From Candidatus Nomurabacteria bacterium RIFCSPLOWO2_01_FULL_41_18 (GTDB lineage: Bacteria > Patescibacteriota > Minisyncoccia > Phycocordibacterales > UBA9973), in contig MFUZ01000006.1 in the NCBI GenBank assembly GCA_001785865.1, positions 176,880-240,879 on the forward strand: 64,000 nucleotides of DNA. Reading direction: 5' to 3'. Shown here in pieces: positions 2,964 to 60,169 of the stretch. Both the position numbers and the translations under genes were made by a program. The notes below the pieces were generated by a model that worked only from the letters and a program-made list of their open reading frames with translations, was not told the DNA's origin and did not search any database. Each line of letters begins with the position of its first letter. Within the stretch, counting starts at the first letter, position 1.

Positions 2964-3707
2964 TTACAGTATAGCACTATTTAGATTTTTAGGGAAGTTA
3001 GTTAAATTCTTATAACCATTTTTTGTTATCAACACCATATCCTCTATTCTTACCCCACCGAAACCTTTCAGGTATATTCCCGGCTCTATAGTCATCACAC
3101 ACCCCACAGGAATAATGTCTTCACTCTTTGGTTTAAAATTTGGCCACTCGTGAATGACAGTGCCGACTCCATGCCCAAGTCCATGTTTAAAATTATTTTT
3201 AAATTTCTTCGCCAAAAAACTTCTAGCAACTCTATCTACTACTTTTGCTTTCTTTTCCCCCTTACTCAACTTCGCTAAAGCACGATTCTGGGCTTCGAGA
3301 ACTACTTGATAAACTTTTTTCTGCTTAGCAGTAGGTTTGCCCCAAAAATAAGTGCGAGTCATGTCTGAACAATAATGATTTATTGTGCATCCAAAATCAA
3401 ACATGATTATATCCGCCCCGCCACGGCGGGTAAACTTTTTTAATTTAGTTTTTCCCGGATTGTGGTGAATATTCGCAGTATTTTTACCAAAAGAAACTAT
3501 TGGTGGAAAGGACAACACATTTACGCCATGGCGTAAATGTGTTTTTTTAATAAAATTTGCAATTTCAAGCTCTGTCACTCCATCCCGTAATTTTTCTATA
3601 GTCTTTTGCAAAACCTTCTCGCTTATCCTCTGCGCTTTTACAATATTTGCCAACTCTTTTTTACTTTTTACCGCCCGTACTTCGTGAATGAGTTTTGTTT
3701 TTTTCAT
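2964..3707 (-). CDS. map: Methionine aminopeptidase type I
   Basis: Metal-ligand motifs DFGCTINHYCSDMTRT, HGLGHGVG, TIEPGIY and RIEDMVLIT. It contains an in-frame GC-rich insertion coding FTRRGG. Confidence 0.9.
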   Translation of the reverse strand: MKKTKLIHEVRAVKSKKELANIVKAQRISEKVLQKTIEKLRDGVTELEIANFIKKTHLRHGVNVLSFPPIVSFGKNTANIHHNPGKTKLKKFTRRGGADIIMFDFGCTINHYCSDMTRTYFWGKPTAKQKKVYQVVLEAQNRALAKLSKGEKKAKVVDRVARSFLAKKFKNNFKHGLGHGVGTVIHEWPNFKPKSEDIIPVGCVMTIEPGIYLKGFGGVRIEDMVLITKNGYKNLTNFPKNLNSAIL

Positions 3708-3790
3708 GGTTCGATTTTGCTCACCATGACCCTGAGAATTTATTCGAATGGGTCATAATTAACTATCCGCATATTCGCGCGAATTAGAGA
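3704..3790 (-). promoter_or_regulatory. Conserved leader element with the start codon embedded in a hairpin (copy 1 of 3), plus an upstream ATTCGCGCGAAT palindrome
   Basis: The minus-sense sequence reads ATGACCCATTCGAAtaaattCTCAGGGTCATGGTGAGcaAAAtCGAACCATG, where the final ATG is the map start codon. The arms ATGACCC/GGGTCAT and CATGGT/ACCATG are self-complementary. Almost the same string lies upstream of the CDSs at 56892 and 57451. Confidence 0.5.
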
Positions 3791-7931: not shown

Positions 7932-8660
7932 TTATATTTTCTCCGGTATTACCAAAGCCACAGATTCCATCAAGGTCTTAGAGGAACTTCCGGGCATACG
8001 CAAGAATTCACGGACTTTAAAAATGTGCTCAAAAAATCTAGTATCAAAGGGCATCTTTGACATGAACTTATTATGCAAAATAAGTTCTAGCGCATTTAGA
8101 AATTTCAAAGCTTTTGAGCGAGTGGAATCTAAGGCAATAATTTCATTTCCCTCTTCGTCCTCTTCTTCTGATTCAGCTAATAATTCTTTTATAAAATCAA
8201 TTCTTTTTTGCAAAGGCATATTTATAAACTTCTCTACTTCTTTTGTGTCTTCTCCTAATTCCGTAAGGCCTTGCCTTGGGGAGATTACATAAAATCTAGA
8301 AACTAAAGTTTTTAGAAGAGAATTTGTATCTGGCACGACCAGAAAGAAATGTGTATTTTCTATAGGCTCTTCAAACATTTTTAGCAAGACATTCTGCGCA
8401 TCTAAAGAAAAACTATTAACACAAACAACGAAAATTTTTTTAGTAGAAGAGAAACCTTTGTTCGTTGACATCGCACGCAAATCAAACGCCTCATCTATTT
8501 TTAGGTTATCAATTGTGATGTGACAAAAATCAGGATTACCCGAAGTTTTAATACCTAAATCTTCACAAAATCGTAAAATCTCCGGCACAATTTTCTCTCG
8601 TCCTCCTTCTATTAAGTAAGCATGGTGTAAATTATTTTTATCTAAGTGTTTTGAAATCAT
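7932..8660 (-). CDS. holB: DNA polymerase III delta-prime subunit-like (clamp-loader AAA+ fold, no Walker A)
   Basis: HAYLIEG, NVLLKMFEEP (the NALLKTLEEP box) and a SRF-type sensor motif. Confidence 0.65.
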   Translation of the reverse strand: MISKHLDKNNLHHAYLIEGGREKIVPEILRFCEDLGIKTSGNPDFCHITIDNLKIDEAFDLRAMSTNKGFSSTKKIFVVCVNSFSLDAQNVLLKMFEEPIENTHFFLVVPDTNSLLKTLVSRFYVISPRQGLTELGEDTKEVEKFINMPLQKRIDFIKELLAESEEEDEEGNEIIALDSTRSKALKFLNALELILHNKFMSKMPFDTRFFEHIFKVREFLRMPGSSSKTLMESVALVIPEKI

Positions 8661-8677
8661 GTGAATATTTTTTAAAT

Positions 8678-8812
8678 TAATAGCTTCTCTCGAAAAGCAA
8701 TCTATCTGGCAAAGCTTTGCCAGCGAACTGCTCGTCGCTCAAGAAAATAATAATCGGAATACCTATTTTATTTTCTAAGCTTCTGCGCAAGGCTTTTCTT
8801 AAGAACTATTTA
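8678..8812 (-). repeat. Dispersed ~134-bp repeat, copy 1 (inverted relative to copy 2), with an internal 18-bp palindrome CTGGCAAAGCTTTGCCAG
   Basis: The reverse complement of 8678-8812 aligns to 12112-12250 with about 95% identity (roughly 6 mismatches in 134). It is intergenic, between holB and mreB. Confidence 0.75.
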
Positions 8813-8823
8813 ATTTAAAATAA

Positions 8824-9837
8824 CTATTTTTTACTTAAAACTGTTTTCTTATATACATCCAAATGCTCCAATGCTATGCCTGTGCCCTTTACCACACAAA
8901 AAAGAGGATCTTCGGCTAAGGCCGCCTTTACCCCAGTTTTCCTGTAAACCAAATCAGTAAAATTGCGCAATTGAGACGAACCTCCGGTCATAATGATTCC
9001 TTGATCTATGATGTCGGAAGCAAGCTCGGGTGGAGTTTCTTGCAGTACATCTTTGATAGCTTGTATTATTTGTTTTAATTCTCCGTCTATGGCTTTAACT
9101 ATCTCATTTGTACCTACTCGCGCAGAACGAGGCAATCCCTGAATATAATCTCTACCCTTGATAGTAACATTAAGTTCTTCTTCCAAAAGTACAGCCGCAC
9201 CGATTTTTATTTTTACTTCTTCCGCTGTCCTGTCACCTATTGCTAGATTGAAGGTTTTTTTAATATAATCTGCTATTGCTTGATCTATTTTATTTCCGGC
9301 ACATTTAACTGATTTGGAAGAAACTATTCCGCCGAGCGATATAACTGCCACATCCGTCGTTCCTCCACCTATGTCCACTACCATATGCCCTCTAGACTCG
9401 TAAATCGGTATCCCAGCGCCAATAGCAGCCAAAATGGGTTCTTTGACGACATATGCATTCTTTGCACCTGCACGTATTGCGGCCTCTATTACAGCTCTGC
9501 GTTCTGTGCTGGTGACTCCGGCAGGTACTGAAACCATCACATCTGGTTTAAAGAAATTGAATCGCCCCATCGCTTTATTTATAAAATAACGAAGCATGGC
9601 TTCTGTCACACGATAGTCAGCAATCACACCGTCTTTCATCGGACAATAAGTAATGATGGATTCAGGGGTTTTGCCGATCATATCCTTGGCTTCGAAACCG
9701 ATAGCTAGAATCTTGTTGTCTTGCTCAGAAACTGCTACCACCGAAGGCTCGTTTAAGATTATCCCCTTGCCAGGCAAAAATACCAAGGTATTCGCTGTTC
9801 CTAAATCTATGCCTAATTTTTTCGTAAAAATACCCAT
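8824..9837 (-). CDS. mreB: Rod shape-determining protein MreB
   Basis: Actin-fold motifs GIDLGTANT and DIGGGTTD. Confidence 0.9.
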   Translation of the reverse strand: MGIFTKKLGIDLGTANTLVFLPGKGIILNEPSVVAVSEQDNKILAIGFEAKDMIGKTPESIITYCPMKDGVIADYRVTEAMLRYFINKAMGRFNFFKPDVMVSVPAGVTSTERRAVIEAAIRAGAKNAYVVKEPILAAIGAGIPIYESRGHMVVDIGGGTTDVAVISLGGIVSSKSVKCAGNKIDQAIADYIKKTFNLAIGDRTAEEVKIKIGAAVLLEEELNVTIKGRDYIQGLPRSARVGTNEIVKAIDGELKQIIQAIKDVLQETPPELASDIIDQGIIMTGGSSQLRNFTDLVYRKTGVKAALAEDPLFCVVKGTGIALEHLDVYKKTVLSKK

Positions 9838-11625: not shown

Positions 11626-12096
11626 TTACTTTCTATATTTTTTCGTCCTCCACTTGTCTGCAATCTTTACCCGTGTGAGCGAACGCTCGAGCTCGGCTTC
11701 AAAATGCTCAAAGTCCACTGCCCCTTTGTTTTCTATTTGCTTCTTCAATTCTTCCGAACGAGCTTTTGCTTGAGCAATTTTTTCGTCAGAAATTTCTTTT
11801 ATATGTTCAGCAAAATCTGCAAGTACAGCCACTTCTGTAACGCCTTCTCCCCCCCGCCCATCCAGGCGGGGCAAGCCAGTTTTAACTTCCACAAATCCGC
11901 CGACTACAGCCATCGGCACATATTCGCCATTCGTAACAGCGACAACATCTCCGGATTTTAAACCAACAACAAGCGGAACATGTTCCGGCAAAATAGTTAT
12001 CTCGCCTTCCGTAGTCGGCAAGGTAACTTGATCCACCATTTCTTCCAAAACAAGCCGTTCTGGGGTGACTATTTTTAGTTTTAATTGTTTTGACAT
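11626..12096 (-). CDS. atpC: F1 ATP synthase epsilon subunit, with a ~12-aa in-frame GC-rich insertion (TGLPRLDGRGGEG)
   Basis: The N-terminal beta-sandwich and C-terminal helix are typical of epsilon. The insertion is coded by ccccgcc-tggatg-ggcgggg at 11846-11877. Confidence 0.85.
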   Translation of the reverse strand: MSKQLKLKIVTPERLVLEEMVDQVTLPTTEGEITILPEHVPLVVGLKSGDVVAVTNGEYVPMAVVGGFVEVKTGLPRLDGRGGEGVTEVAVLADFAEHIKEISDEKIAQAKARSEELKKQIENKGAVDFEHFEAELERSLTRVKIADKWRTKKYRK

Positions 12097-12111
12097 AATG
12101 TATATTTACTT

Positions 12112-12250
12112 AAAAAACAAATAGTTCTTAAGAAAAGCCTTGCGCAAGAGCTTAGAAAATAAATGAGGTATTCCGAATATTATTTTCTTGAGCGATGAGC
12201 AGTTCGCTGGCAAAGCTTTGCCAGATAGATTGCTTTTCGAGAGAAGCTAT
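12112..12250 (+). repeat. Dispersed ~134-bp repeat, copy 2, forming an inverted pair with copy 1
   Basis: About 95% identical to rc(8678-8812). It is intergenic, between atpD and atpC. Confidence 0.75.
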
Positions 12251-12312
12251 TTATTTTTTAAATTACAGTGCACCCTTCCCATTCTTCGCTAACGCTCATC
12301 AGGACTTCGGCG

Positions 12313-14420
<2,108 letters not shown>

Positions 14421-37703: not shown

Positions 37704-38153
37704 TTAAAAAAGACTGTCCACGACTGCTTTTACCACCATCCCGTCTGCTTTGCCTTTTAGTTCTTTCATAAGAGCTGACATGAGCATTCCCTTCTTTGCG
37801 GCATCTGTGATTTTAAGTTCCTCTTTTTTAATACGAGCAATTTTTTCCACTTCACCCCTATCCATCATTTTTGGCAAATAAGTTTCAAGTATCGCCAGCT
37901 CGGATTCTTCTTCTTTTACTAAATCCTCTCTATTTCCCTTTTTAAATTGCTCTATTGAGTCTTTTCTTTGTTTTGCGAGTTTAGTTATAACAGAAATAGC
38001 TTCGGGGTCTGTGAGCATTTCTTGTGGTTTTCTATTTTTGGCGACAAGCTCGTTGGTAAATGCGGCAGACATGGCCCGGAAAGCTTTCAAGCGCAAAACG
38101 TCTTTTGCCATCATTGCTTCTTTTATTCCATTTTTAATTTGTTCGTGTAGCAT
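37704..38153 (-). CDS. GatB/YqeY domain protein
   Basis: YqeY-like helical repeat sequence. The probable start is MLHEQ. Confidence 0.65.
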   Translation of the reverse strand: MLHEQIKNGIKEAMMAKDVLRLKAFRAMSAAFTNELVAKNRKPQEMLTDPEAISVITKLAKQRKDSIEQFKKGNREDLVKEEESELAILETYLPKMMDRGEVEKIARIKKEELKITDAAKKGMLMSALMKELKGKADGMVVKAVVDSLF

Positions 38154-38191
38154 TGCTTGATTATAACAAAGAAATATTGTTTTAGAAAGCC

Positions 38192-38262
38192 TTGCACAGG
38201 CGGGTAGCCGAGCAGTTCGCCCTGCCAAGCTTGCAGGGATAGATTGCTTTATAAAATAATAT
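38192..38262 (+). repeat. Partial third copy of the ~134-bp repeat, with a covarying palindrome around AAGCTT
   Basis: gagcagttcgcc-ctgccaagcttgcaggg-atagattgcttt compared with gagcagttcgc-tggcaaagctttgccag-atagattgcttt in copies 1 and 2. Confidence 0.6.
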
Positions 38263-38284
38263 TTCTTTGTGGTAATATAGTAAG

Positions 38285-39001
38285 ATGGCTAAGCTAATAT
38301 TTTTTGATACGGAGACCACGGGCAATGAACAGAAGGACTCCCTATGCCAAATTGCTTATAAAAGTGGTGATGAAAGTTTTACTGGCCTTTACAAGCCTCC
38401 ACTAAAAATTCCACCCGAAGCTTCTGCTGTACACCATATAACCAATAAGATGGTCGCCGACAAACCATCTTTTGCTGAAAGTGGGGATTTGTCTAAAATT
38501 AAAAAACTTTTTGAAGATAAAGACATCGTCGTCGTGGCTCACAACGCGCCTTTTGATTTGATGATAGTCGAAAAAGAAGGAATCAAGCCGCAAAAATTTA
38601 TTTGCACTTTACGGGTTGCCAGACATTTAGACCCAGAGGGAAAAATAGAAAGATATAACTTACAATATTTGCGTTACTTACTCGAAATAGAAATAGATGC
38701 CACTGCTCATGACGCGCTTGGTGATGTGTTGGTCTTAGAAAAACTTTTTGAGCGATTGAAAAATAAATTAATTCAGAGCGAGAATGTAAGCGAAGATGAA
38801 GCGATAAATAAAATGATTGAAATCTCTTCGCACCCTTCACTTCTGCGTTCATTCAACTTTGGCAAACATACTGGTAAAAAAATAGAAGAAGTAGCGAAAG
38901 TAGATAGAGGCTATCTGGAATGGCTACTAGCCCAAAAACTCGAAAGCGATCAAATAGATGAGGATTGGATTTATACGTTGAAACATTATTTGGGGAAATA
39001 A
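38285..39001 (+). CDS. DnaQ-like 3'-5' exonuclease with a C-terminal DUF3820-like domain
   Basis: Exo I FFDTETTG, Exo II VVAHNAPFDL, and C-terminus KHTGKKIEEVAKVDRGYLEWLL. Confidence 0.75.
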   Translation: MAKLIFFDTETTGNEQKDSLCQIAYKSGDESFTGLYKPPLKIPPEASAVHHITNKMVADKPSFAESGDLSKIKKLFEDKDIVVVAHNAPFDLMIVEKEGIKPQKFICTLRVARHLDPEGKIERYNLQYLRYLLEIEIDATAHDALGDVLVLEKLFERLKNKLIQSENVSEDEAINKMIEISSHPSLLRSFNFGKHTGKKIEEVAKVDRGYLEWLLAQKLESDQIDEDWIYTLKHYLGK

Positions 39002-39004
39002 TCA

Positions 39005-39052
39005 CCACCCCCTACCCCCGCCTTAATCAAGGAGGGGGTTAGGGGGTGGTAA
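39005..39052 (+). terminator. G/C-rich hairpin CCACCCCCTACCCCC...GGGGGTTAGGGGGTGG
   Basis: Imperfect 15-bp stem immediately after the stop codon. Confidence 0.5.
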
Positions 39053-39074
39053 TTCTGAATTCGGAAGGAAAAAC

Positions 39075-39106
39075 TTGACAATAGCTGTGTGTGTGTGTGT
39101 TAAATT
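39075..39106 (+). promoter_or_regulatory. TTGACA promoter with a (TG)7 dinucleotide tract in the spacer (20-nt spacer to TAAATT)
   Basis: ttgaca-atagc-(tg)7t-taaatt. Losing one or two TG units would give 18 or 16 nt, close to the optimal 17-nt spacing (candidate slipped-strand switch). Confidence 0.4.
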
Positions 39107-39350: not shown

Positions 39351-39371
39351 AAAAGTGTGCATTCTGCCGCT

Positions 39372-39420
39372 TGTGAGGAGCCGAGCTTCCACAGGCGGCT
39401 TCTTATTTTTATTTAAATAA
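39372..39420 (+). terminator. Repeated terminator module (copy A): GCCGCTTGT-loop-ACAGGCGGC plus TTCTTATTTTTATTT
   Basis: About 55 nt, almost identical to 40525-40580. Confidence 0.65.
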
Positions 39421-39447
39421 ATGTGGTAAAATAAATTGGAAACTTGA

Positions 39448-39481
39448 TTACCTAACTTTTCCGACCGGTAGAGTTAGGTAA
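39448..39481. repeat. 34-bp palindrome TTACCTAAC-N16-GTTAGGTAA (copy 1), overlapping the 3' end of the PaaX-like CDS
   Basis: Perfect 9-bp arms. It codes the last 9 residues (LPNSTGRKS) and the stop codon. Confidence 0.65.
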
Positions 39482-40087
39482 ATTGAAAGTTTTTCGCAAA
39501 TGCCAATCATTTTCTAATTTTTCTACTATCATATACAAAACATCTTTTCCTATCTTAAAATCCGCTTTTAATAAAGAAATCAGATCCTCGCAATCATACG
39601 GATATAGCCAGACACTATTTTGAAGCCGAATAAAGCCTATTTGAGAAAGTGTTTGCCTTAAAAGAAATCTGGTTTTACTCCTTGATTCTTTTATATCAAA
39701 AATAACTACCCTCCAACGACCATCCCATTTTTTTGGAATTTTTAATTTAAAATTATGCTTATCAAGAAAATCCAACTTACTTTCCCCTTTCCTTGTAATA
39801 CGGGCAACTTTTTTCCCATTTATTTCAATTATTTCAATAAAGCCTTTTTCTCTAAGACGTGTAAAGGAATCATTTATGGAGTACTTTAAATTCTTTTTTC
39901 TTTTAAAAGAACTCTCAAGTTTTTTAATAGCTGATAAAACATTGGGAGCAACCAGAGCAACTCCAAGCATGCCAGCGGTAAAAACTGTGTTTAAAATTAT
40001 TTTTTGAATATTTTTGCGTTTATCCTTCTTTTTGATTTCTTGTTCTAAATTTCCCATATATTGATAACTACGTAAATTATAATCCAC
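39452..40087 (-). CDS. PaaX-family transcriptional regulator-like protein
   Basis: N-terminal winged-helix region (RLREKGFIEI...ARITRKGESKL). C-terminal WDGRWRVVIFDIKESRSKTRFLLRQTLSQIGFIRLQNSVWLYP matches the PaaX_C pattern. Confidence 0.55.
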   Translation of the reverse strand: MDYNLRSYQYMGNLEQEIKKKDKRKNIQKIILNTVFTAGMLGVALVAPNVLSAIKKLESSFKRKKNLKYSINDSFTRLREKGFIEIIEINGKKVARITRKGESKLDFLDKHNFKLKIPKKWDGRWRVVIFDIKESRSKTRFLLRQTLSQIGFIRLQNSVWLYPYDCEDLISLLKADFKIGKDVLYMIVEKLENDWHLRKTFNLPNSTGRKS

Positions 40088-40097
40088 AAATATAAAA

Positions 40098-40131
40098 TTA
40101 CCTAATTATTCCGACCGGTAGAGTTAGGTAA
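40098..40131. repeat. 34-bp palindrome TTACCTAAT-N16-GTTAGGTAA (copy 2), 11 nt upstream of the PaaX-like start codon
   Basis: Differs by one base from copy 1. It is a candidate operator. Confidence 0.65.
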
Positions 40132-40211
40132 TTTAGCAAAGTAAAAAATTGACACCTTACGCCTGAAGTGTTAGTTTTTAAGGGATAATCAACTAGTTCA
40201 CCAAAGGACAT

Positions 40212-40511: not shown

Positions 40512-40524
40512 TGTGCGTAATTGC

Positions 40525-40580
40525 CGCTTGTAGGAAGCCGAGCTTCCACAGGCGGCTTCTTATTTTTATTTAAAATGCTA
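40525..40580 (+). terminator. Repeated terminator module (copy B)
   Basis: gccgcttgtaggaagccgagcttccacaggcggcttcttatttttatttaaa. Confidence 0.65.
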
Positions 40581-42853: not shown

Positions 42854-42925
42854 TGACCCTACGCGGAATCGGACCGCGATTTAAGCCTTGAGAAGGCCTT
42901 GTCCTAACCGTTAGACGATAGGGCC
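42854..42925 (-). tRNA. tRNA-Glu (anticodon CUC)
   Basis: rc = GGCCCTATCGTCTAACGGTTAGGACAAGGCCTTCTCAAGGCTTAAATCGCGGTCCGATTCCGCGTAGGGTCA. It folds as a cloverleaf. Confidence 0.8.
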
Positions 42926-56816: not shown

Positions 56817-56894
56817 TGTGACCCTTCTAAATAATCAGGCCTTCGCTCTGAGACTCAGGCTCGAAGAGGTCATGGTGAGTAAAACCGAACCATG
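56817..56894 (+). promoter_or_regulatory. Start-codon-embedding leader element (copy 2 of 3), expanded form
   Basis: TGACCC...CTCAGGcTCgaagaGGTCATGGTGAGtaAAAcCGAACCATG. The final ATG is the CDS start. Confidence 0.5.
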
Positions 56895-57401
56895 AAAAAT
56901 CCAAAAAAACTATATATTGAAACAATTATTTTATTATTTTTTTGTGTTGTTATATTTTTTGTATATACAAAAGAAGAGAAAATCACCACCCCGTCTCAAG
57001 TAAAAACCGAAGCTCCCCTCCTTGATAAGGAGGGGGTTCCGGCTGGTAATTTAAAAAAGAACCACCTCGCCTCTGGCACTCCTCCTCAACAAGGAAGAGA
57101 GGAAACTATCCCAGAAAATACTCAATCTGCAACTGTCCTAGCTGGAGAAATGAACATAAATTTATCATTTCTCCCAAATACTATTTTCTATGATGCACTC
57201 ATACAAGCAAGAGATGCTAATAAAATAACATTTTCCGGTAAAAATTATCCTGGGCTTGGATTTTTTGTAACCGACATCGGCACCCTGCATGCAGGCAGTA
57301 GAAAATACTTGATTTATTACATTAATGGGAAGGAGGCGACCGTCGGCGTCTCGGCTTATACACTCAAAAAGGGCGACGTCATCGAGTGGAAATTGGAATA
57401 A
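56892..57401 (+). CDS. Secreted protein with a C-terminal DUF4430-like domain
   Basis: Signal-anchor MKNPKKLYIETIILLFFCVVIFFVY. C-terminus GFFVTDIGTLHAGSRKYLIYYINGKEATVGVSAYTLKKGDVIEWKL. Confidence 0.5.
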   Translation: MKNPKKLYIETIILLFFCVVIFFVYTKEEKITTPSQVKTEAPLLDKEGVPAGNLKKNHLASGTPPQQGREETIPENTQSATVLAGEMNINLSFLPNTIFYDALIQARDANKITFSGKNYPGLGFFVTDIGTLHAGSRKYLIYYINGKEATVGVSAYTLKKGDVIEWKLE

Positions 57402-57402
57402 C

Positions 57403-57453
57403 ATGACCCATTCGAGAAAACCTCAGGGTCATGGTGAGTATAATCGAACCATG
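57403..57453 (+). promoter_or_regulatory. Start-codon-embedding leader element (copy 3 of 3), with a perfect TATAAT 7 nt before the ATG
   Basis: ATGACCCATTCGAGaaaacCTCAGGGTCATGGTGAGtaTAAtCGAACCATG. It starts 2 nt after the upstream stop codon. Confidence 0.55.
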
Positions 57454-59526
57454 ACAAATATATTAAAATTGAGTTTGTTGTGTCTGATGGTGTTTAGTTT
57501 TACTGTAAATATTTATGCAGAAGATACTGAAATAGTTGATCCAGAACCAGTACTCCCTCCAGCCGAAATTCCTCTAGATCCAATTCCAGATCCCGTGCCA
57601 GAACCTGATCCAGCACCAACAGTTACATTTATAATTAGAAATGGTGATACATTGATCTACCAAGACACAACCCCTCTTCCTGACATAGAAAATGATAGAA
57701 ATGTATTATCAGTTTTGCAATCTATTGATGAATCAAGTGATGCATTTTCTATAACAAACATTCAAGAATTTTCTTTCGGTAAATATTTAAAATGCATATT
57801 ACCAACTGATGCGACAGAGCTATGCGACAATTGGCAATACGCCGTCGGAAATTTGACGCCTTTCTCGAGCATAGATACTACAATGCTCGTAGGCGGCGAA
57901 ACAGTAGGCATATATTTCGGCACATCGCACCAGCTCGTCTTGAGCAACGAACGCATTACTGAAGGCGGATCATTGACTGCCACTGCTCAAAAATATAATT
58001 ATGAAACCAACGCATGGGATATATTGGAAGGTGTCTCCGTGGGCGTGACCCTGCCAAATCCCGATGACGCCTGGAATCCGATAGTGGTCTCGACCCACCC
58101 TGTCGATGATGTGGGAATAGCAACTATCACCATCGCCGAAGAAAACACATTCACACTCGGCATCGTGGAAGATTTTTACTTTCCTTCATACACCGTAGTC
58201 GTCGAAAAATCCGAAGAAGACGGCGAAAATGGAAGCGAGAATGAGGGAACGAACGGAAGCAACCCTACCCCACACTCTTTCAGCACCGCAGACGCTTTGT
58301 CGTATCTGAAAAGCATGCAAAGCGAAGACGGATCATTCGGAGACTCCGATCTGTACACAGACTGGGCAGGAATTGCTTTTGGATCTATGAATGTAGGCGG
58401 AAGTTCAAAAACTAAAATTCTTTCTTATTTTGAATCTAATAACGAAATTAGTTCCCTTTTGACCGACAATGAAAGGCGTGCGATGACACTTCTCGCGCTT
58501 GATAAAAATCCATATTCTTTTGGTGATGATGAAGTAAATTACATAAAAGCTATTGTGGATGAGTTTGATGGTGAACAGTTTGGTGATGCAGACTTAGTTA
58601 ATGATGATATTTTTGCTTTGATTCCACTTCAAAATGCTGGTTACAATGAAAACGACGATATGATTATAGAAGACATCACTTTTATAATTTCAAAACAAAA
58701 AAGTAACGGCTCATGGGAAGAAAGCGTAGACGTCACAGCGGCAGCTATCCAAGCACTTGAAGCTTTTGATGGAGTAGATGGGGTTTCAAATGCACTCTCG
58801 CAAGCAAGTGCTTATCTCGAAAATGAACAAAACAGTGACGGTGGTTGGGGTAATGTTTCTTCTACAAGTTGGGCAATGCAAGCAGAAAGTGCGCTAAATA
58901 CGTCATGGTCAAAAAATGGAAAAGATGGACTTGATTATCTAGCGACAGGGCAAGAAGAAGACGGCGCAGTTTCCCCTACCGAAGAGACACTTGAAAATCG
59001 CATTTGGGCAACGAGTTATGCAGTTGCCGGAGCTTCGGGAAAGTCATGGGGTGAAATTATGAATTCAGTTTCAAAACCATCAAATCAAGAAGAGAATTCT
59101 GGGAATAATAATGAAAATGATTCAGATGATGAAAATGATTCTAGAGATGACACAGAAGATGAAATAGAGGATGTTGCTCCAGAAGAAACCCAAATTAAAA
59201 CAGTTGTCTGCCCTGTCGGAGATTTTTTTAACGCGACGACTGGAGAGTGGTGCACCGAATTTGTGGTGATAAATAATCCACCAATTATTAAACAAGAAAC
59301 AAAAATAGTAAAAAAAATAGAGATAGTGGAAACTCTAGCGGAAGAAAAAACATTAGGAGAACAAACTTTAACAACAACAGAGACCCTGACAGCAACAGCT
59401 ATCGGTACATTACCTACCGAGCAAAGTGTGCCACCGGAAAAAACTTCCAGTACGACCCCGATTGTTCTCGGAACTCTCGGAGGAATCGTTCTTCTTTATA
59501 TTGCCGCTAAGTTTTTGATCAAATAA
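57451..59526 (+). CDS. Large surface protein with an N-terminal DUF4430-like region, prenyltransferase/squalene-oxidase-type alpha-alpha toroid repeats, an acidic linker, and a Thr-rich C-terminal anchor (TM plus basic tail)
   Basis: The likely true start is MTNILKLSLLCLMVFSFTVNIYA (a signal peptide). The track ORF starts 42 codons earlier and runs through the leader element. Repeats: SEDGSFGDSD..., QKSNGSWEES..., EQNSDGGWGN... and GQEEDGAVSP.... C-terminus ...TLPTEQSVPPEKTSSTTPIVLGTLGGIVLLYIAAKFLIK. Confidence 0.6.
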   Translation: MTNILKLSLLCLMVFSFTVNIYAEDTEIVDPEPVLPPAEIPLDPIPDPVPEPDPAPTVTFIIRNGDTLIYQDTTPLPDIENDRNVLSVLQSIDESSDAFSITNIQEFSFGKYLKCILPTDATELCDNWQYAVGNLTPFSSIDTTMLVGGETVGIYFGTSHQLVLSNERITEGGSLTATAQKYNYETNAWDILEGVSVGVTLPNPDDAWNPIVVSTHPVDDVGIATITIAEENTFTLGIVEDFYFPSYTVVVEKSEEDGENGSENEGTNGSNPTPHSFSTADALSYLKSMQSEDGSFGDSDLYTDWAGIAFGSMNVGGSSKTKILSYFESNNEISSLLTDNERRAMTLLALDKNPYSFGDDEVNYIKAIVDEFDGEQFGDADLVNDDIFALIPLQNAGYNENDDMIIEDITFIISKQKSNGSWEESVDVTAAAIQALEAFDGVDGVSNALSQASAYLENEQNSDGGWGNVSSTSWAMQAESALNTSWSKNGKDGLDYLATGQEEDGAVSPTEETLENRIWATSYAVAGASGKSWGEIMNSVSKPSNQEENSGNNNENDSDDENDSRDDTEDEIEDVAPEETQIKTVVCPVGDFFNATTGEWCTEFVVINNPPIIKQETKIVKKIEIVETLAEEKTLGEQTLTTTETLTATAIGTLPTEQSVPPEKTSSTTPIVLGTLGGIVLLYIAAKFLIK

Positions 59527-60097: not shown

Positions 60098-60169
60098 GGC
60101 CCTATCGTCTAACGGTTAGGACAACGGGTTTTCAATCCGTTAATCGCAGTTCGATTCTGCGTAGGGTCA
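60098..60169 (+). tRNA. tRNA-Glu (anticodon UUC)
   Basis: GGCCCTATCGTCTAACGGTTAGGACAACGGGTTTTCAATCCGTTAATCGCAGTTCGATTCTGCGTAGGGTCA. It shares its 5' half with the Glu-CUC tRNA at 42854-42925. Confidence 0.8.

Follow-up and report, generated by a model that had tools for sequence, protein, structure and literature searches.

Transcribed palindromic repeats are represented in bacteria by the ERIC/IRU and Correia types of Enterobacteria and Neisseria, and also by BOX and bcr1. Repeats of the ERIC/Correia type are co-transcribed and fold as RNA hairpins, and the Correia hairpins are cut by RNase III; Correia repeats, like most MITEs, are bounded by terminal inverted repeats of conserved sequence and have a target duplication (TA). 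REPINs consist of two inverted REP 20-40-mers with a GTAG tag, in which the stem is conserved and the loop is variable, and are mobilised by RAYT transposases. The R1-R5 sites of phage T7 are intercistronic RNase III processing hairpins, which are not mobile repeats and are without a conserved multi-helix cap. Patescibacteria have genomes among the smallest and most streamlined of all bacteria, and to our knowledge almost no non-coding RNA families specific to them have been described. The analyses presented here revealed a large and apparently undescribed family of non-coding intergenic elements in Patescibacteria (Nomurabacteria/Paceibacteria lineage). In a comparison by description, its behaviour would be closest to that of ERIC, Correia, BOX or bcr-type repeats and REPINs, and it appears to belong to no named family.

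The window (the whole 64-kb stretch of DNA that was analysed) contains three copies of the element, numbered 1 to 3 along it (Table 1), and no further copies or relatives were detected in it beyond these three, all of type I. Three sequence blocks are common to all copies, namely GAAAGCCTTGC, CGAGCAGTTCGC and GATAGATTGCTTT, the first of them lying upstream of the other two, while the stems in between differ and keep their complementarity. The central part reads GAGCAGTTCGC-TGGCAAAGCTTTGCCA-GATAGATTGCTTT in copy 1 (minus strand) and copy 2 (plus strand), and GAGCAGTTCGC-CCTGCCAAGCTTGCAGG-GATAGATTGCTTT in copy 3 (plus strand). Exact GAGCAGTTCGC and ATAGATTGCTTT flank the P3 palindrome with constant spacing and have three matches each in the 64 kb; in shuffled sequences, with up to one mismatch allowed, 0.5 and 1.1 matches were found, respectively. 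Copies 1 and 2 are inverted relative to each other and 92% identical over 150 nt. Copy 3 has only the three blocks in common with them, and these are surrounded by an inverted repeat of its own (I6; 38 nt, 82% complementary). The sequence bears out the first-pass annotation as to three copies with exact flanking blocks and differing self-complementary arms. Its repeat length of 134 bp was too short, and the segment that it had delimited (38192-38262) lies inside copy 3 and is only a part of it; the hairpin that it described is P3, which is just one of four helices.

Table 1. Coordinates of the three window copies, of the parts of copy 3 and of the type II/III relatives in loci (L) from other assemblies.
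Feature	Position	Strand	Evidence or remark
Copy 1, whole element	8664-8828	-	Inverted repeats I1 and I21; fold; covariance model; Pfam neighbours
Copy 1, P3 palindrome CTGGCAAAGCTTTGCCAG	8706-8723	-	
Copy 2, whole element	12110-12261	+	Fold; covariance model; Pfam neighbours
Copy 2, P3 palindrome CTGGCAAAGCTTTGCCAG	12207-12224	+	
Copy 3, whole element	38153-38283	+	Inverted repeat I6; RNA fold; model R1; Pfam neighbours
Copy 3, P1 5' arm	38153-38190	+	Ends AAAGC (38186-38190), paired with GCTTT (38246-38250)
Copy 3, P2	38192-38215	+	Alignment A1, pair counts
Copy 3, P2a	TTGC 38192-38195 with GCAG 38212-38215	+	Followed by internal loop ACA/GA
Copy 3, P2b hairpin GGC-GGGTA-GCC	38199-38209	+	
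Copy 3, J2/3, TTCG	38216-38219	+	Identical in all type I copies collected (the scan required these bases)
Copy 3, P3 hairpin CCCTGC-CAAGCTT-GCAGGG, palindrome CCCTGCCAAGCTTGCAGGG	38220-38238	+	Palindrome of the first-pass annotation
Copy 3, J3/1, ATAGATT	38239-38245	+	Conserved unpaired junction
Copy 3, P1 3' arm	38246-38283	+	Inverted repeat, fold
Type II/III relative	L004:1898-2001	-	
Type II/III relative	L035:3582-3686	-	
Type II/III relative	L037:2191-2293	-	
Type II/III relative	L099:1024-1128	-	
Type II/III relative	L108:626-726	+	
Type II/III relative	L090:3154-3294	-	
Type II/III relative	L037:1562-1651	-	

Identification of the neighbouring genes by Pfam placed the three copies in different contexts. 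Copy 1 lies between mreB (stop TAG at 8824-8826) and the gene of DNA polymerase III delta' (start at 8660), is co-directional with both, and contains the mreB stop codon in its 5' arm. Copy 2 is located within the atp operon, between atpD (end at 12313) and atpC (start at 12096), and is antisense to both. Copy 3 fills the entire spacer from the start of yqeY (38153, minus strand) to that of an RNase_T/ExoX-like exonuclease gene (38285). From 1 to 38153 of the window all open reading frames but one are on the minus strand, and the strand switch falls exactly at copy 3 (38285 onward).

All three copies are predicted to fold in the same order: P1, one unpaired C, P2a (UUGC/GCAG), an internal loop (GCA or ACA opposite GA), P2b, UUCG, P3, AUAGAUU and the 3' arm of P1. 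The P3 stem of copy 3 has 6 bp (CCCTGC/GCAGGG) and a 7-nt loop, and that of copies 1 and 2 has 7 bp around AGCU. The P2b hairpin measures 11 nt in copy 3 and approximately 48 nt in copies 1 and 2, where P2 is expanded (about 52 nt in copy 1); at its base, copy 2 has an A-U pair (12147/12196) and copy 1 has G-C at the equivalent place. The RNA fold of copy 3 has an energy of -50.5 kcal/mol (z = -5.6), and z-scores of -4.3 and -3.6 were obtained for the same strand of the other two copies. Model R1 scored copy 3 at 87.6 bits, and its opposite strand at 18.6 bits. A covariance model built without copies 1 and 2 recovered them both, with 58.2 bits (E=4.6e-14) and 56.2 bits (E=1.8e-13), respectively.

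The size of the family was estimated by scanning one genome per GTDB species with the pattern AGCAGTTCGC-N(10-30)-GATAGATTGC, which fixes 20 core bases by exact AGCAGTTCGC and GATAGATTGC, so that their invariance is partly by construction. The scan revealed at least 115 loci; among the matches listed, about 105 also have the third block upstream and are true copies, and about 10 are chance matches in high-GC genomes with other spacings. The true copies come from at least about 70 assemblies among the matches listed, and nearly all are in MAGs labelled Nomurabacteria, Paceibacterota, Minisyncoccia or Patescibacteria. The labels of locus L032 (JBAYGQ010000387, Bacteroidota) and of many 'Candidatus Saccharibacteria' TPA MAGs disagree with the Nomurabacteria-like gene content near the element, which points to mis-binning of contigs or to automatic labelling. 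Where both neighbour genes are visible (103 copies), at least 65 distinct flanking-gene pairs, that is, intergenic sites, are represented, and the genes at these sites are diverse and ordinary housekeeping genes. P2 is short in half of the copies listed and expanded in the other half, reaching about 140 nt in two. No copies were found in IMG/VR (pattern scan), INPHARED phages or PLSDB plasmids. At gathering score, Rfam 15 detected only four tRNAs in the whole window, and at E up to 10 only chance-level matches to unrelated families were returned for copies 3 and 1, L056 (the best-scoring short form) and L035 (type II). No description of the element was found in the full-text literature searched on CPR/Patescibacteria RNA motifs, MITEs and REPINs.

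The architecture common to the family is an outer stem of 20-40 bp (P1) closed by a conserved three-helix junction that carries P2 and P3. The folding strand reads GCCUUGC...GAGCAGUUCGC...GAUAGAUUGC, in which P2a is followed by a GCA/GA internal loop and by a P2b in the form of a 4-bp hairpin or, when expanded, of 52 to about 140 nt, J2/3 is UUCG, P3 has 7 bp with an AGCW tetraloop, and J3/1 is AUAGAUU. Approximately 30 junction and loop bases are near-invariant, and the four helices around them (P1, P2a, P2b and P3) covary freely: P3 alone has 52 distinct versions in about 105 copies listed (for example CTGGCGAAGCTTCGCCAG, CTCCGCAAGCTTGCGGAG, CTAGCCCAGCAGGGCTAG and CTGGAATAACAATTCCAG). Pairs were counted for a structure written by hand on a plain MAFFT alignment of 52 short-form copies (A1). 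In this alignment, 93.1% of the cells form a standard pair, compared to 75.0% in shuffles, and both sides have changed in 22 of the 33 pairs, compared to 16.3. The covariation score was 0.464, against 0.145 in shuffles, and none of 500 shuffles reached the observed value; when partners were slid by 1-3 columns, 36-50% of the cells were paired. Double compensatory changes occur in 6 of the 7 pairs of P3 (98.6% of cells paired), in 3 of the 4 pairs of P2b and in 13 of the 18 pairs of P1. For 52 long-form copies, RNAalifold independently predicted the same architecture, with 45 pairs of which 27 have compensatory changes, the P2 expansion included. In orthologous copies at one site (L084 vs L058), the outer arms stay complementary via paired changes.

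P2a is invariant in the pattern-selected set. In bystander copies, which were found by the covariance model only, it switches from G-C to U-A (UUUC/GAAG; L095, L101 and L039); these copies also keep UUCG, and their core bases change rarely and mostly with compensation. The switch rules out a competing pairing between blocks 2 and 3, that of GAGCAGUU with GAUUGCU in the minimum-free-energy fold of copy 3, since the C-to-A change of the GAGAAG variants is compensated in block 1 (UUUC) and not in block 3. Two further readings were rejected: in a hammerhead reading of GGCUGACGAGCC...GAA, the CUGA/GACG bases fall in a variable tetraloop (GACG, GGCG, GUCG, GGGUA) and stem II cannot form, and a small reverse-strand peptide would have an open frame without ATG in which, by inspection, the stems covary regardless of codons.

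The first-pass annotation had argued for selection on a hairpin rather than on primary sequence, and had proposed a covariation analysis of all genomic copies. With more than 100 copies and covariation in every helix, this view is upheld: the stem does not drift at random, and the repeat is a functional element family and not a chance duplication. The AAGCTT on which the annotation centred its palindrome is not conserved across the family, in which the centre is the AGCW tetraloop with a covarying closing pair; the self-complementarity itself is retained. As to the choice that it left between an RNA stem-loop and a dyad-symmetric protein-binding site, a duplex-DNA site is disfavoured by freely varying stems, an asymmetric core and the mismatch counts that follow.

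In 101 of 104 copies the sense strand gives a more stable fold than its complement, by a mean of 8.3 kcal/mol, which is partly due to a constant U.G pair in P2a. For the variable P1 stem, transition mismatches were counted under a scoring scheme in which G.U and A.C have equal weight. G.U-type mismatches exceeded A.C-type ones (124 vs 39, p=1.6e-11), although some positions are inherited within subfamilies and the counts are not all independent. An excess of G.U was found in 63 copies and an excess of A.C in 5, and the ratio was in the same direction in all four flanking-gene contexts (30:12, 41:12, 29:8 and 20:5) and at P1 pair positions from 25 outwards, the far end of the stem (22:3). A palindrome of duplex DNA would lack such an asymmetry, and thus one strand folds: folding of the element is strand-specific. 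Compensatory changes in the helices and this strand asymmetry are both what a structured RNA in general displays. The folded species is probably RNA, and its main rival is single-stranded DNA.

The orientation of the element is unrelated to the flanking genes. Among 99 copies listed, 40 were antisense to both neighbours, 23 were in convergent pairs, 21 in divergent pairs and 15 were sense to both, counts that are inflated by orthologous copies of the same site; the same inflation applies to the excess of antisense over sense copies in co-directional pairs (40 vs 15), by which the sense RNA of many copies would be an antisense transcript. P1 abuts or overlaps the flanking stop codons (median gap of -4 to +5 nt), and several convergent pairs have their two stop codons base-paired with one another (TAA...TTA). 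The distance from the end of P1 to an adjacent start codon has a median of 8-27 nt, and copy 3 abuts both neighbour starts. The element usually occupies the whole spacer, with no obvious space for a promoter of its own. A consensus promoter scan for own or outward promoters in the arms gave nothing above background, and AT-rich -10-like boxes near the starts were indistinguishable from base composition. The elements are not canonical intrinsic terminators, in which a G+C-rich stem precedes a U-tract: they were absent from the terminator scan and had no consistent T run 3' of P1. In the window, the genes adjoining the elements (8661-8680, 12097-12112, 38154-38165 and 38270-38284) are without a Shine-Dalgarno-like sequence, and AT-rich -10-like boxes, such as TGTTATAAT and TGGTAATAT, lie 3-7 nt before their ATG; their mRNAs may be leaderless or use SD-independent initiation.

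Comparison of orthologous sites revealed behaviour like that of a mobile element, or of one that is often gained and lost. The mreB-holB site is filled in the window, in L019 and, in the opposite orientation, in L013; L030 and L050 have no element there and a spacer of 2-5 nt, and L059 has only a remnant of the 5' arm. At the rpmE-prfA site the two genes of the window are separated by 0 nt, but L007, L037 and L102 have an element between them, with both orientations and both forms of P2 represented. At the atpD-atpC site the element is antisense in 6 genomes and sense in 3. Several more filled/empty pairs were found, and one site carries type I in L101 and type III in L090. No direct repeats indicative of target duplication were found at the borders when filled and empty versions of the mreB-holB and rpmE-prfA sites and of sites 2 and 5 were compared. 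Each subfamily has inverted-repeat arms of conserved sequence that are not the same in other subfamilies, and the outer portions of the arms vary from site to site. Terminator hairpins already present at the insertion points were considered as the source of these site-specific outer portions and rejected, as the empty spacers are of 0-21 nt and without a palindrome, except for a short one in L064.

The identity of copy 2 with the atp-site copies of other genomes is 79-90%, and the cap and the P2 expansion are 80-94% identical between genomes, compared to 55-75% for the HolB and AtpC proteins there. This higher identity of the element, together with copies 1 and 2 being 94% identical and thus closer to each other than to orthologues elsewhere, indicates that it is constrained, and homogenised or recently copied within the genome. 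These two copies are 3.3 kb apart and in opposite orientation within a run of same-strand genes, which leaves no simple replication-strand rule; the GC skew of the window merely mirrors gene strand, and no origin could be called from it.

The family resembles ERIC and Correia repeats in being formed by imperfect palindromes of 100-170 nt that fill spacers within as well as between operons, lie in either orientation and are polymorphic for presence or absence. It differs from them in its patescibacterial host, with at least about 70 species-level genomes, and in covariation in four helices; unlike in Correia repeats and MITEs, the arms vary, the apical cap is conserved and no duplication was seen. 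Of the features of classical DDE-type MITEs, many copies (at no fewer than 65 sites) and presence/absence polymorphism at orthologous sites were found, and target-site duplication was not. The likeness to T7 R1-R5 is in long duplex hairpins placed exactly between cistrons, known here from sequence and predicted fold.

The explanation that we favour, with moderate confidence, is that of a mobile-like family whose RNA-folded strand is read from its neighbours. The element would be transcribed by read-through from neighbouring genes or from adjacent AT-rich promoters and yield a folded RNA. Its long perfect P1 duplex (20-40 bp) would be a hairpin between cistrons that serves for processing of the RNase III type or for insulation, and the invariant cap would be a module recognised by a protein or by the machinery for copying the element; it would be this cap that keeps the family conserved. 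The usual lack of room for a promoter and the frequent antisense placement in co-directional pairs count against this explanation.

It is possible, if rather unlikely, that the element is mobile as folded single-stranded DNA, its cap and stem being the substrate of an HUH or tyrosine recombinase acting in trans and its RNA structure incidental, for which REPIN/RAYT, IS200/IS605-derived elements, integron attC sites and the CTX-phage attP hairpin are models. Strand-specific folding with G.T tolerated would fit, as would the many copies with gain, loss and within-genome homogenisation, an orientation independent of transcription with no space for a promoter, and the lack of target-site duplication between filled and empty sites, as in HUH-type transposition. 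With REP/REPIN the family also shares hairpin-forming intergenic repeats and long persistence. However, a conserved central cap with variable stems is the reverse of REP and attC, in which conservation lies in the stem or outer boxes and variation in the centre. The family also differs from REP/REPIN, in which a conserved palindromic unit of 20-40 nt with a GTAG or CGTC tag is paired in inverted orientation around a variable spacer: on reading of the alignments, no GTAG tag is apparent in the conserved blocks. No transposase or recombinase gene, RAYT included, was found beside any of the 103 copies in the 8-kb blocks around the matches, and no autonomous version with an open reading frame in P2 was found among the copies listed, where the largest P2 is about 140 nt. 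The opposed copies 1 and 2 likewise speak against it. A more speculative extension, to which we give a low probability, is that the three-helix cap would be the active module of a new kind of mobile element, either as a new self-cleaving or otherwise catalytic RNA or as the folded single strand on which an unrecognised machinery for recombination or copying acts, and that the elements would spread through the tiny patescibacterial genomes without fixed terminal repeats or target duplications.

It seems improbable that the cap is a catalytic or ligand-binding RNA, such as a new class of self-cleaving ribozyme carried on a small repeat in the manner of dispersed hammerhead and twister copies, although the two share a three-helix junction with invariant junction nucleotides (about 30 near-invariant bases here), covarying stems and many copies in either orientation relative to genes. 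The apparent deficit of sense copies in co-directional pairs would be expected if sense RNA disrupted operon mRNAs, but sense copies are tolerated in the atp operon of 3 genomes. The junction lengths and sequences differ from those of hammerhead and twister, no Rfam 15 ribozyme or riboswitch matched four representative copies at E up to 10, CUGANGA/GAAA-like strings occupy variable positions, and the relatives of types II and III have other sequences at the junction. A cis-regulatory leader, riboswitch or dyad-symmetric operator for neighbouring replication genes (the dnaQ-like exonuclease gene and holB), suggested by copies 1 and 3 ending immediately upstream of these genes in the same orientation, is highly improbable and was rejected as a 5' leader of the dnaQ-like gene, since copy 2 is antisense inside the atp operon, the 99 copies listed have neither a constant orientation nor a coherent gene set, with unrelated housekeeping neighbours in each of the four orientation classes, an orthologous site may be occupied in either orientation or empty depending on the genome, and freely varying stems are incompatible with a protein operator.

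The covariance model also retrieved relatives of two further types, II and III, which have P1 and a UUGCGCAGG-hairpin-CCGAGCA module as in type I (in a variant, UUUCGAGG...CCGAGAA) and differ in P3 and J3/1. This suggests that types I-III form a superfamily. In L037, one element of each type is found in three successive spacers. The loci L099 (400-1400) and L114 (700-3900) have the same two flanking genes, presumably a small gene for a possible pterin dehydratase (by reading of its sequence) and a gene for a membrane permease, and both loci have elements next to these genes; in L114, compared to L099, one gene and its element are inverted and three genes are inserted between. Elements may thus mark rearrangement points at these loci.

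Other repeats were observed in the window. A second small repeated hairpin, GGTCATGGTGAGTAAAACCGAACCATGA, is located at 3693-3741 (-), 56868-56909 (+) and 57417-57468 (+); its 3' arm holds an ATG that apparently starts the downstream open reading frames, and these hairpins may be a family of translation-masking stem-loops. Terminator-like hairpins (TGCCGCTTGT..ACAGGCGGC with a T-rich tail) at 39365-39417 and 40522-40574 are 94% identical and 1.16 kb apart. Near-identical palindromes (ATTACCTAAC...CCGACCGG...GTTAGGTAAT) at 39447-39484 and 40097-40134 bracket an open reading frame (39452-40057, minus strand) and look like operator sites or element ends. Directly 3' of the exonuclease gene there is a G+C-rich near-perfect hairpin (38997-39057), with a short (TG)n run at about 39086-39100. 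In addition, two similar tRNA genes are inverted and 17 kb apart, at 42854-42925 (-) and 60098-60169 (+), with 85% complementarity over 74 nt.

If three copies per 64 kb are typical, extrapolation gives roughly 0.5-1% of the genome to this element. It sits inside essential operons (atp, rpmE-prfA and mreB-holB) and is more conserved than the surrounding proteins. It would be either a very successful genomic parasite with an unusual structure-based spread or an RNA module on which the cells depend for transcript processing or insulation. With over 100 sequences and covariation in four helices, this well-defined new motif provides a basis for tests of ribozyme activity, ligand binding and protein binding, and the element may serve as a marker of genome dynamics in uncultured CPR lineages.
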